A stretch of 63,085 nt of DNA, counting the filler, from Bigelowiella natans CCMP2755 (taxonomy: Eukaryota; Protista; Cercozoa), in the NCBI GenBank assembly GCA_000320545.1. It is 6 parts of 6 records of this genome, joined end to end, with 100 filler letters (N's around TTAATTAATTAA, not from the genome) between each part and the next. Parts side by side here need not be neighbours in the genome. Positions count along the whole stretch, not along the records: positions 1 to 28,801 come from ADNK01000161.1; positions 28,902 to 33,849 come from ADNK01001793.1; positions 33,950 to 39,731 come from ADNK01000706.1; positions 39,832 to 44,200 come from ADNK01002583.1; positions 44,301 to 59,983 come from ADNK01000430.1; 1 more part is not named here. One strand, written 5' to 3'. Below, piece after piece: positions 9,327-52,199 of the stretch. Below the pieces are notes generated by a model. The model saw nothing but the letters and a program-made list of their open reading frames with translations. It had not been told where the DNA came from and did no database searches. Position 1 is the stretch's first letter. Every line of letters begins with the position of its first letter. The translations under genes were made by a program, and so were the position numbers.

Positions 9327-9343
9327 GATGCATGTGAGCACAT

Positions 9344-9381
<38 letters not shown>

Positions 9382-10030
9382 CATTCAACATGGCATGTGC
9401 ACGATGTTCACTTCTTTCCACACAGACATTGTCACAAATTGTGGCACGTGTGACTCGAATCTGATGAGCTAGTGAGTGGTGATGGCTTTGCATTTTCGTG
9501 CTTGATTTGGTCACACATTCGCATCATTTGTTGAGTCCATCCGCGTGCATGAATGCAACCACGCACGTCATGCACTGCTCCATCATCATCATTGAACCGG
9601 TGCGGTCTGTCACTGTGATTGAGCAGGCACGACATGTCAGCATGCTGCAGTCCAGCAGTGGCGGTGGGTCTGTGCCAGTCCAGCATCGTGGACCACGATC
9701 GATGCCAGCTGACCATTGCGATGCATGCGATGCGATCAGAATGTCAACCACAAGTGCACAGCATGCAATGCACAATTTGGACAATGAAGTGGACTTGTCA
9801 GAGCCAAAAGTCAAGATGGAGGTCGAGCATGATGCAGTCTGTGAGCGTTTGCGACAAATGACGGCTGCCCATTCAAGTTTCCTGAGCGTTGGCGCCAGCT
9901 GATGGAAGTTCACAACGCAGCGTTCAGCGAACCGTGCGAAGTGAAGAATGAGTGCAAAGCAGTTCCAATGCTTGAATCGAAAGGAGGATCTCCCCAATCA
10001 ACAAAGAGCAGCCAAAGAAATTGCGAGGGG
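9327..10030. pseudogene. TpA-depleted decayed sequence island (degenerate coding or transposon relic)
   Basis: One TA (in CTAG at 9470) in 704 bp by hand count. Overlapping long ORFs on both strands lack Tyr and are His/Cys-rich, e.g. VEHDAVCERL and EVHNAAFSEPCEVKNECK. Confidence 0.55.
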
Positions 10031-10263
10031 TACACACACACATGCAAACACACACACACACCACGGTGCACAGTGGGATTGGTGATGTTTAGGTGAAATC
10101 GTGTGGAGTCACGGGAGTACCGTACCAGCGTACCAGGAATGCGATCCTTTTTTCCGGGGAAAAAGTTGGTGCGGCCTTGTCGTACACGGAAAACATCATG
10201 ACTTTTTTTGTGAGTTTTTCCGAGCCAAGGCCACCCCAGTAACGAGAAACTTGCTCGGGAGAA

Positions 10264-12782
10264 ATGATGGTGGTGATGGCACCGCATCTGCTACTTGTGG
10301 CCATCATGGCAGTCACTAGTTCTGCTGCGAGGAGAGATAGCGATAAGAAGGTGGTCATTGTTGTTGGAACTGTTTGACGATTCCACAAGCTGTCATGTAA
10401 ACTCCCATCCCATCAAATCCGGAGACTAATCGTCTTAACTCATTCTCCCTTTCATCTTTGAGCAGCAGCCTGAAGGCCGGATTAAACACGTGATCGTCCT
10501 CATGGAAGAAAATCGTTCCTTTGATCATTTTTTTGGGTATGCTCGCGATGAGATGGGAGTGAACGGTGTCACCGGGAACGAATACAATTTTCTCGACACT
10601 GAGAATCCTAGCCTCGGGAAAGTGTACATAAAAAATCATACGGAGTACATCAATCCATGCGACCCTGATCATGGCACTAAGGCCACCACGAGCAAGATCT
10701 ATGGTAGCGACATGCCCGTCGTCCATCTCATTTGCTTTGCTTCGGGAATGCTCACACCAATACTGATCTTTTTTTCTTCCAGGGGCAGCAGCTGTGTCGA
10801 AGGGAGATCTCTCTAACGCAACGATGAACGGATTCATCGAGTGGGAACTGAACAATCGGCACCATAACGCTTCATTGGATTATTGTGGCGTGATGTCGAT
10901 GTTCACGGGTGATAAAATACCCGTGATCACCACCCTCGCCAAGGAATTCGCCATCATGGATCGATTCTTTTGTGACCACCCAGGCCCCACGTGGCCAAAT
11001 CGCATGTTTGCACTATCGGGAACGAGTGCAGGGTCCCTCGAGACTGGGGTGTGGTACCACGATCAAGTTGGCAAGTTATTTCCTCAGAAGACAATCTTCG
11101 ACCAAGTAGCTGAAGCAGGTTTACAGTGGAGGTAGTAGTAATAGTTGTTGTAATACGTTTGTTTGTGCTGCTGCTGTTGCTGTTGTAGCAATTTTTAGGA
11201 AGTGGTGGTAGGAGTAGTAGCATCCAGCAGCTATATATATATTTGAGAGTGTTAGGATTGTTATCACATACATGACGTGGTGGGCATTGTTACAACAATA
11301 CAGGGTGTATTACAACGACACTCCCTGGGAAGCATTTATGGAAACTATTGCACACAATCCCGAGAATATACAATCAATGCAGTCCTTCTATGAGGATGCA
11401 AGCCGGGGTACCCTTCCTTCATACGCATGGATAAATCCCAGATCCGGCATCAACGTGACAACCGGGGTGGGGTCGAACGACCAGCACCCGGATCACGATG
11501 TAGCTGCCGGCGAGAGATTTTACAAAGATATCTACGAAGCTTTGAGAGCGTCACCCCAGTGGAATGAGACTTTATTCATCATCACATACGATGAGCATGG
11601 AGGATTTTACGACCATGTACCGCCTCCAGCAGCGAATATACCTGCTCCTGATGACGAGAAGTCGTATCCTACTTCTGAACCTTCATTCGATTTCACCCGA
11701 TTGGGAGTTCGCGTCCCAACGATTCTTATATCTCCCTGGATCAAGAAAGGAACGGTAGAGGCGTATTTGCTTTGATGTTTGATTATCCCTAAAGTTTTTC
11801 TTCCTTCAGGTGGTCTCATCGCCTCCACCATCGCAGCGTCCCTTTGGAAGTTCTGAATACACGCTGTCTTCGATCATTTCCACTGCACGAAAGCTTTTGA
11901 AGCTGGATCTACCGCCTCTCACGAGACGAGATGCATGGGCCGCCACCTTTGAGCATGTTATTGATACAGAAGGACAGGCATCTCCCCGTGAAGATTGTCC
12001 ATTGCACCTTCCCAAGGCACCTCCAGTTACTCTACCTCTGGAACAAGAAGCAAAGAGCCCTCTGAACGACCTTCAGCGCCAGATTGTGGAAGTTCATGCG
12101 CACTTGGCGGGGAGGAAGATGCAAGAGTTAAACATATCAACACAGGGTACTAATGAATTTATTTTGAATGTGTATTAGAACATATTATAGATATGCCTTC
12201 TAGCTTACAGATTCTCCATATTGTCGCCGATCAGGCGAAGTGTCCGAGTGGCTGCGAACGCACTATTCATTCCACGAACAAGCAACCCTATCTTGGAGAA
12301 ATTCGAAACAAAACCGTTCCCTCGATTTGGTGGTGCGACCAGGAACGGATGGATGGTCTGATAGTGGCTGGGATATGGTGGCAAGTGAAATATGGAAAGA
12401 TTGCAGTCAGGTTTCAACGAGGAGTTTGAAAAACGAAGCTGGCATTCCCTACTGCCTAGATGCAGGCGATGCCCGTGCAGGTTCGCAAGTCTTCGTATCT
12501 TCTTGCTATCCTCGAGATCGCGCACAGTTGTGGCTAGTTCAGAGCCGTGAACATGGCAACGATGGCACGCTCCGGCCTGTAGCAAATGATTCTCTGTGTT
12601 TGACCACAAGATACTGGACTGCTGGTGGGGATGAAAAGTTATATCTTGAACGGTGCAAGGACGATGTTGAACAGAAATGGGCATGGCATGGTCCAGCTCC
12701 GGGATCTGGCGAAGGATCTGGAAACTTGCTATTCGGAGATGATGCAAATCGGTTAGGGGTTGTCGCTAATCCAACCATATAA
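10264..12782 (+). CDS. Secreted non-specific phospholipase C / phosphoesterase with C-terminal ricin-B (QxW) lectin domain
   Basis: Six exons. Signal peptide MMVVMAPHLLLVAIMAVTSSA. Phosphoesterase motifs IKHVIVLMEENRSFDHFFG, DPDH, PGPTWPNR, NDQHPDHDV, TYDEHGGFYDHVPPP, RLGVRVPTILISPWI. Tail CLDAG...SSC...AQLW...CLT...ERC...EQKW is ricin-B-like. Confidence 0.93.
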
Positions 12783-50093: not shown

Positions 50094-51170
50094 TTAGGCT
50101 GAGAATGTTCCTGCTGCGGCTCTTATTCCCGCTATTCCTCGAACACTATCATCCTCTTCAATGTTTTTCCGTTGACCGAATAACTTATCCACATCACCGA
50201 TGCCGCTGATTCGGATTGGGCTGTTGTTAATGCGTATCCCTCTGCGGCCGTTTGTTCGATGAATCCCTGAGGCTGATAAGAATAAAAAAGAAAGAAAGAA
50301 TTTAAAACTTGAATGAATTTCAGGAAATTTTGAGGAAGACTCGATCTTTCTAATTACCTTTCTCGATAGCTTCACGGTGATCAAACGCCTCCCCATCAGG
50401 TCCACCTGATTCACTGCACATCTTTATAATAAGATCGCAACCCTCGTCCTCCAAAGGGCAGTCGGAGAAAGCGCATTCACAGCAAGCTTCGTCCTCGATG
50501 CATTCGCCCTCGAACCCGATACACTCAGACTGAGAAATGAAGGGGCAAGATGAAGGCATGTAATCGTCATAGGGGCTGCTTAACGCGAAGCCAACCTTCA
50601 ATTCAAGGCATCTATTCAGCTTCGTCTTACAGAACATATCATACGGTGCTATGTGGCTGAGAAACAACATAAAGGCATTCAAAAAAAATATTCTCTTCCC
50701 GTTGTCAAAGACAGGGTAGCCTTCGTTAAAATCAAGACCAGTAGAATCGTGCAACTTCTAACTCGCAAATACCAGCAAACCCGAATATTTCGCCTTTAGT
50801 TAAGAAAGAATTAGAATTTTTCTGCAAATTGTCAAACTCATCGATGATTTGGGGAATTTGGAGACCGCCAATATTATCCCTATTGAGTATCCTCGCTTGT
50901 ATGTTCCCGTCAACCTAAAATTTCGAACAAGAAATGAGAGAGGGGGAACATCTAAAACGAGAAAAATCACGTTCTTCACACAAAGAATAGCTCAAACGAA
51001 ACTATTTTCGCTGAGCATTCGTTTAATTTAGCTTTGATAAGCATACTTGTGACTGTAGTGCGCTCGTGAGCTGATTGAATAGGAGCAAAGGGAGGAGGAG
51101 GAGGCGTGGCAGGAGGACTTTTATCCTCCCCATAACAATTGATTTTTAAATATTGTTTCAGACTGATGAT
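50094..51170 (-). CDS. Hypothetical cysteine-rich protein (5' structure unresolved)
   Basis: Exon with FCKTKLNRCLE...SSCPF..SECIGFEGECIEDEACCECAFSDCPLEDEGCDLIIKMCSE splices in phase to a last exon GIHRTNGRR...AAGTFSA*. Confidence 0.5.
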
Positions 51171-51715
51171 CAACCTTTTCGAGAAAATATATCCCGAAAT
51201 TTCATTCAATTTGTAAAATAATCATGTCGCTTTTCAAATTTTCAGGACTTCATCTGGTATTGTCTCCGCAGGTGTGCTGAGGTCTAAACTGATTCTCTCT
51301 TGTAACACACGGAACTCGCAAATTCTGCGAACTAAATACAATGGATTTATGCCAAAAAATAAATAAAAAGGTTGAAAAGGACAAAAAACCGCAACGAGAA
51401 TATCAGAGGAAAGCTGGCACGAGCTCGCTCCTCTCAGAGAGCCGTTGCTTCACATTTCAAGAAATGGGGGAAATGCAGTCCTTTTCCCCTCATTTATCTG
51501 TCAGTGCCAATTCCCGCTGGAATTTCCGGGACTGACTGTCCGTTTTTGGGTGGAATTGGTCAGTTTTTTTCTGCAGTGGTATTCATTGGGTGCTGCTGAT
51601 AACATAAAAAGAGACGTTTAATCAAAAGAAGGACATTTTCGATATTTTTCGTCAAACTTTGTTGTCGTCATCTCTTCCCCCCTTTTTGCAGTCGAGGCAG
51701 GCAAATGGACAAAAA

Positions 51716-51815
51716 CATTCATTTTGCTCCTGCCTCTTTTCGTGCAGTCACCGCAGCTCTCATTCATTTTGCTCCTGCCTCTTTTCGTGCAGTCATCGCA
51801 GCTCTCATTCATTTT
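51716..51815. repeat. 45-bp tandem duplication (2.2 copies) inside a TpA-depleted island
   Basis: CATTCATTTTGCTCCTGCCTCTTTTCGTGCAGTCA(C/T)CGCAGCTCT at 51716 and 51761, partial third copy at 51806. Confidence 0.9.
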
Positions 51816-52199
51816 TGTTGTTCAGCACACATTTTGCATCAATGAACGTCGGGCAATTGATTTCATTTACGCTTTTTGCATTGGCACGTGCTGCATGCGC
51901 CACAAGCCCCGCGTTTGTGGGATGGCTCAGCTTCCCACATTGGATGCGATCTGCGGCGTTGTGATGGTGCTTTGTCCACAAGCACATTGGATTGAACTCA
52001 AAACATGTGCATGCAGCGCCAAAACTGCCGCGTATGATCGACCGGTGGCAGGACTAAACAACCATCACAATTGGACACCACTGTGGGCTAGTTGTAGGCC
52101 ACCACAGTGGTGATGTGATCAACGAAATGAAATTGGGCGTGCAATGCAACTTTCGTCGTGGTGGTAGATAGAGCTAGTAACATCATTGTTATCTTCTTG

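Follow-up and report, generated by a model that had tools for sequence, protein, structure and literature searches.

What has stripped the dinucleotide TpA (TA) from four short islands in a stretch of the Bigelowiella natans CCMP2755 genome, and does the loss mark a genome defence? The stretch (63,085 nucleotides, here called the window) consists of six contigs joined by N linkers (28802-28901, 33850-33949, 39732-39831, 44201-44300 and 59984-60083) that carry an all-frame stop motif; comparison with the linker positions places every island inside a single contig. An initial annotation had proposed that a mutator directed at repeats or heterochromatin turns TA into TG or CA here, the reverse of fungal repeat-induced point mutation (RIP). 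We consider it highly probable that the islands, one of which is a high-copy miniature inverted-repeat transposable element (MITE), are old scars of a TpA-specific A:T to G:C hypermutation known from B. natans (Mettrop et al., bioRxiv 10.64898/2026.01.13.699255).

TA depletion and its products

The islands contain 1 (9327-10030), 0 (16381-16808), 7 (29981-31114) and 1 (51645-52032) TA, exactly as first counted by hand, with 42.5, 29.3, 70.8 and 24.0 expected from base composition (9 observed against a sum of about 167, or one per 16 bp). Poisson p values for the deficit are 1e-17, 2e-13, 4e-22 and 9e-10 for islands 1-4, respectively, and range from 4e-9 to 4e-5 when measured against the TA level of coding exons in the window (rho 0.53). 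Ranked by length, the top four TA-free gaps anywhere in the window (561, 430, 402 and 225 bp) all lie inside the four islands. Neither of two sets of 100 Markov simulations, the first trained on the window and the second on coding exons, yielded a TA-free gap of 400 bp; the real window has three. No pairwise similarity was found among the four islands.

Six-frame translations of islands 1-4 show 0, 0, 3 and 1 tyrosines and 2, 0, 11 and 1 TAA or TAG stops, with TGA stops kept. Since Tyr and TAA/TAG disappear while TGA remains, the open reading frames (ORFs) stacked on both strands are a by-product, in agreement with the initial annotation.

A mass balance of pyrimidine-purine (YR) steps, the class interconverted by transitions, was used to follow the lost TA, with the window minus islands and halos (the TA-reduced flanks of island 2), microsatellites masked, as reference. 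The 709 YR steps of the islands comprise 9 TA, 557 CA+TG and 143 CG (0.013/0.786/0.202), and the 13586 steps of the rest of the window comprise 3150, 7739 and 2697 (0.232/0.570/0.199). The TA share is down by 0.219 and the CA+TG share up by 0.216, with a flat CG share (0.202 vs 0.199, p = 0.85), and both products are raised in the islands (rho 1.77 for CA, 1.64 for TG). The direction is not that of fungal RIP (C to T at CpA, with a gain of TpA), as the islands lose TA and gain CA. CG observed/expected (O/E) ratios of 0.71, 1.11, 0.90 and 0.89 in islands 1-4 (whole window 0.89), and a CG-rich motif at 16437, bear out the initial view that CpG is retained amid abundant TG and CA.

AA and TT are not depleted in the islands (rho 1.18 and 1.30, respectively): AA forms 0.326 of purine-purine steps vs 0.285 outside, and TT 0.365 of pyrimidine-pyrimidine steps vs 0.306. 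TC is not depleted either (rho 1.0). The AA and TT values bear on error-prone patch synthesis in silent chromatin by an eta- or iota-type polymerase of the Y family, with A to G changes hottest at TA, a mechanism that the initial annotation had also entertained. Polymerase eta prefers WA. Patches of this kind would account for local tracts and for halos of a few hundred bases, and polymerase eta is listed as an A/T mutator in somatic hypermutation in the excerpted text of PMC2118430. However, the route is disfavoured because AA and TT are enriched rather than depleted, and the preprint mutations of this class are all at TpA; we regard it as improbable.

Repeat copies, flanks and CTAG

Depth and copy state were judged from public DNA runs at 80% likeness, more diverged older copies being outside that reach. 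Island 2 has the inverted-repeat ends, short length, non-coding sequence (no Pfam match) and high copy number of a MITE (Table 1). Its depth is about 340 times gene level in run X1 and about 480 times in run X14, with many short variant contigs; this is a rough measure rather than a copy number, and a family of hundreds of relatives is implied. Its CAC termini, with the likely 3-bp duplication, resemble those of CACTA/CMC elements. Metagenome scans for the MITE end gave 0 matches, and six loci from a viral scan were rejected as relatives, only 17-20 bases being common, which is chance level.

The direction of change was read from this MITE and from a second repeat (13087-13164), the depth of which is about 350-370 times gene level. 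Forty of 74 variable positions were listed, 25 of them in the two repeats; two seen only in an RNA run were dropped, leaving 23. Transitions account for 21 of these 23 listed positions, and 18 of the transitions fall in YR steps, to which 54% of bases belong. At 13125-13126, C at 41% and A at 91% of depth constrain TA to 50% or more, CA to 32% or more and TG to 9% or less, and TA is the hub of a TA/CA/TG star. Positions 13116 and 13161, TA in the window, are CA in 13% and 84% of depth, respectively. Within the MITE, the TG at 16765-16766, just inside the right arm, has A at 16766 (TA restored) in about 64% of family depth, and TA is restored at 16699 in about 26%. CA/TG swaps with identical depth occur at 16464/5 (run X14) and 16510/1 (run X1). 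Together with the mass balance, these polymorphisms support the TpA-directed A:T to G:C process first proposed and agree with the mutation-accumulation data of the preprint; the copies are not equally TA-free, nor are the changes mainly CG to TG/CA, since other copies hold TA.

The second repeat sits between two convergent genes, and many of its copies seem to lie at transcript 3' ends, since RNA reads there show poly(T) loose ends. A metagenome scan for it gave 0 matches.

Methyl-CpG decay, with TG and CA derived from CG, or elements that were TA-poor from birth might be invoked instead. CG to TG/CA changes yield identical TG/CA swaps, there are three CG/CA toggle sites, and the CG O/E of island 1 is only 0.71. 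The unchanged CG share of YR steps nevertheless argues against such decay, and among the positions listed 2 of 27 MITE CG (one via a transversion) vs 8 of 82 CA/TG are variable. Moreover, TA persists in other repeat copies and would not be removed by either process, and the pattern recurs in four unrelated sequences, making this explanation very improbable indeed.

Repetition is neither necessary nor sufficient for TA loss, since island 1 is single-copy at the likeness used and repeat 13087-13164 keeps TA. Island 1 has a depth of 94, which is gene level; a single contig spans 9390-13141 with 0 differences, and both island 1 and the MITE flanks show 0 differences to contigs of two public DNA runs, although the window itself may have been derived from run X1. 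Strict repeat targeting, as initially proposed, is therefore not supported, and enrichment of the TA troughs in repeats is mixed, with the high-depth MITE on one side and island 1 and the TA-keeping repeat on the other.

TA loss extends beyond the MITE. TA outside CTAG makes up 3% of YR steps in the 200 bp on the left side of the MITE and 6-10% in the 300 bp on its right, as against 12-48% farther out. The simplest reading is leakage from the MITE; RIP, too, leaks into flanking DNA.

Five of the nine residual TA in the islands lie in CTAG. In the C-YR-G context, TA accounts for 5 of 24 island steps, matching ordinary DNA (88 of 362), vs 4 of 681 in other contexts (p = 3e-6). In the halos, the limits of which were set by eye, TA is found at 6 of 11 steps in CTAG context vs 38 of 347 elsewhere (p = 7e-4). 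When 500-bp tiles were ranked by CA/TG excess alone, the top fifth gave 43 of 102 in CTAG context vs 389 of 1953 without a TAG strand, and the remaining fifths 23-31%. CTAG is thus spared, although the numbers are small. One-strand TAG sites in the islands are erased like the rest (TA 1 of 182) with both products equal (D-TG-G 80, D-CA-G 77), and hence the whole palindrome is needed for sparing. To judge from sequence, CTAG may be either protected or re-created from CCAG/CTGG.

A rule acting on one strand, by which A would resist when followed by G or preceded by CT, had been suggested by hand-picked CTAG-rich regions (D-TG-G 49, D-CA-G 85); it failed in the islands (80 vs 77) and in the context-blind tiles (244 vs 256) and was dropped. 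A weak TAC preference in islands plus halos (226 vs 173, p = 0.009) was likewise absent in context-blind tiles (396 vs 387) and rejected. Intergenic stretches rich in CTAG and in CA/TG, with low CC/GG and high GC, occur at 48500-49760, 27440-28100, 22440-22960 and 1200-1700; in the hand-picked set, which includes 12880-13440, CTAG makes up 51 of 66 C-YR-G steps. These stretches are possibly older or partly edited elements accumulating CTAG.

Table 1. Features of the window, with positions along the whole stretch.
Feature	Position	Strand	Observations
Island 1, TA-erased	9327..10030		Single-copy depth; just upstream of phosphoesterase (phospholipase C-like) gene; sole TA in CTAG (9470)
Short high-copy repeat, partly edited	13087..13164		9 TA in 78 bp; TA/CA/TG alleles among copies; polarising internal control
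RPS3a exon 2	13652..14371	-	239/239 identical to Bigelowiella natans Bigna1 protein P0121
Left halo, single-copy flank	16183..16382		4 TA in 63 YR steps, 2 of them CTAG
Likely 3-bp target-site duplication AGA	16380..16382, again 16787..16789	+	One copy; 1 in 64 by chance
Island 2 core, MITE, 404 bp	16383..16786		0 TA, 27 CG, 82 CA/TG; depth hundreds-fold
Left terminal inverted repeat	16383..16399	+	17 bp perfect, imperfect to about 25 bp; loose contig ends at 16383
Right terminal inverted repeat	16770..16786	-	Paired with left arm
Right halo, TA-reduced flank	16787..17086		8 TA in 90 YR steps; single-copy depth from 16952
Island 3, TA-erased	29981..31114		7 TA, 4 in CTAG; no homologue detected
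Island 4, TA-erased	51645..52032		Holds 45-bp tandem duplication 51716-51805, 98%

A known hypermutation and its possible chemistry

The initial annotation knew of no characterised system of this kind. TpA hypermutation is in fact already known in B. natans: the 2026 preprint of Mettrop et al. itself draws the comparison with RIP, proposes an adenosine deaminase and names an ADAT2-like candidate, Bn78255. Of 302 mutations in mutation-accumulation lines, two integrated viral regions held 231; all but one of these were A to G or T to C, those 230 all lay at TpA, and the TA to TG/CA rate in the viral inserts was about 1000 times background and confined to some lines. The preprint also reports 324 gene models poor in TpA, among which DDE and reverse-transcriptase domains are over-represented, together with 124 clusters of 1-kb windows poor in TpA and rich in CpA+TpG (10.64898/2026.01.13.699255). 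With its cut-offs (1-kb windows, Rho TpA <=0.43, Rho CpA+TpG >=1.52), windows over islands 1, 2 and 3 pass and island 4 (388 bp) fails at four offsets; no island yields a run of 3 windows, that is, a cluster of the preprint type.

The islands share with that system the species and the TA to TG/CA signature, and its targets include a single-copy one, the nucleocytoplasmic large DNA virus (NCLDV) insert. The difference lies in scale, the targets there being viral inserts of 186 kb and 25 kb and clusters of at least 3 kb, whereas the islands are end states of 0.4-1.1 kb. High-copy MITEs fell outside the published assay because its callable genome dropped sites above twice the mean depth (10.64898/2026.01.13.699255). 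The words CTAG, MITE, CpG and polymerase have 0 occurrences in the main text of the preprint, from which halo leakage and CTAG sparing are also absent. Literature searches on TpA or dinucleotide depletion in Bigelowiella returned the preprint alone as relevant, and broader ones gave no other report. Fungal RIP is likewise a dinucleotide-specific transition hypermutation of mobile DNA, but it changes C to T, making TpA, and acts only on duplicated sequence; island 1 and the NCLDV insert, by contrast, are single-copy.

If the footprint is that of the known hypermutation, we give deaminase chemistry about an even chance. A host DNA adenosine deaminase would then probably act on silenced foreign DNA, recruited to a locally marked patch of silent chromatin instead of to paired repeats. 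On whichever strand it lies, the A of TpA would be converted to inosine and replicated as G, giving TG when the top strand is altered and CA when the bottom strand is. Separate copies would be altered after insertion, with the mutator leaking a few hundred bases beyond the element into its flanks, and CTAG would be inaccessible to it, or the change there undone. TadA-type deaminases favour TA, and the TadA/ADAT adenosine deaminases, including the evolved TadA8.20, resemble the proposed activity in converting A to I, read as G; the excerpted text of PMC12265680 describes no CTAG block, and as an agent acting on B. natans DNA such an enzyme is a candidate only.

A modified base could leave the same footprint, if 5-hydroxymethyluracil (5hmU) or an oxidation product on the T of TpA, or N6-methyladenine that is later deaminated, marked silent DNA and miscoded. 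Bases of the 5hmU type may miscode as T to C. A writer preference or a competing mark would account for CTAG sparing, and a mark set at the level of the motif would suit the requirement for the palindrome better than an enzyme pocket that reads one side. Dinoflagellate 5hmU preferentially takes the place of T in TA and TC, is concentrated at repeats and represses transposons, a likeness in both target and motif; as presented in the excerpted text of PMC11572971 it is an epigenetic mark with no hypermutation reported. It is, however, placed on TC as well, which is not depleted in the islands, and literature searches for modified-base or methylation data from B. natans gave nothing usable. We hold this route to be possible but unlikely.

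Several points weigh against a TpA hypermutator, or against its being a deaminase. The halos could represent an older element hosting the MITE insertion. The CA/CG toggles at 16527-8 and 16531-2 (MITE) and at 13147-8 fit CpG decay or secondary change, and the binomial p of 9e-4 for transitions in YR steps is overstated, because paired positions depend on each other and allele shares come from assembled contigs and from the 40 listed positions. Runs X1 and X14 gave no sign of ongoing change, with 0 differences across island 1. Furthermore, islands 1, 3 and 4 appear to lack an identifiable foreign origin. Pfam at its curated cut-off gave 0 matches for 13 island ORFs, 2 neighbour ORFs and, from islands 1 and 3, 12 read-through frames, and a homologue search with one island 1 ORF (near lengths only) and one island 3 ORF found none. 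As for the chemistry, the TadA preferences reported in the excerpted source leave a CTAG-specific block unexplained, and the preprint terms its own deaminase case not conclusive (10.64898/2026.01.13.699255).

A role as genome defence is unproven: the MITE family is plentiful and its ends are undamaged, its insertion duplicates a sequence other than TA, and TAA/TAG stops are removed rather than created. Erasure of TA target sites, a purpose suggested initially, is not supported, the likely duplication being AGA, and transposon inactivation is likewise unproven, the family having attained hundreds of copies with its terminal repeats intact. We tentatively advance, with somewhat less than an even chance of its being correct, the joint reading of a genome-wide, homology-independent defence that operates down to individual MITE copies of 400 bp and reaches 200-300 bp into the unique flanks. 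It would be fully blocked at CTAG, with TAG or CTA alone giving no block, and the mutator would be gated by a DNA mark or binding protein specific to CTAG.

Neighbouring features and significance

The initial annotation had the islands coincide with a MITE, a tandem duplication and decayed coding-like DNA; the first two were found, in islands 2 and 4, and the third was not, there being no Pfam match or homologue in the searches made. SsdA_C (E 0.012-0.03) and similar weak matches in island ORFs were rejected as noise. An Rfam scan of the whole window gave 0 matches. At 30640-30670, island 3 has what looks like an A/T-rich AATA repeat with TA now CA or CG, hinting at double changes from TA to CG.

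The neighbouring genes are ordinary host genes. The phosphoesterase (phospholipase C-like) gene (10265-12782), which has a C-terminal ricin-type beta-trefoil lectin domain, begins about 240 bp past island 1. RNA run X21 looks 3'-biased, whereas X15 is an environmental run of small share, and low depth over island 1 was not read as proof of silence. The RPS3a exon, which matches the Bigna1 protein in full and so confirms the species as B. natans, is 95% identical to that of B. longifila and 79% to that of Amorphochlora. Adjoining island 4, a Ser/Thr- and Cys-rich ORF (52200-52760, minus strand) has no significant Pfam match; we take its alternating pattern to recall pore-forming domains of the aerolysin/ETX type. 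Finally, a near-perfect inverted repeat around an AT microsatellite (62437-63085; arms of 176 bp at 98% and 90 bp at 97%) is not TA-depleted and is either a foldback element or an assembly artefact.

With this window the known footprint comes to include a high-copy MITE and single-copy relics of less than a kilobase, which the published cluster scan would miss. As TA loss strips TAA/TAG stops and leaves spurious ORFs, it may inflate the gene models of B. natans. A natural mutator of DNA that turns A into G at a defined motif would be of consequence for base editing and for the biology of genome defence, and gating by CTAG, if true, would provide the first sequence handle on the mutator enzyme.

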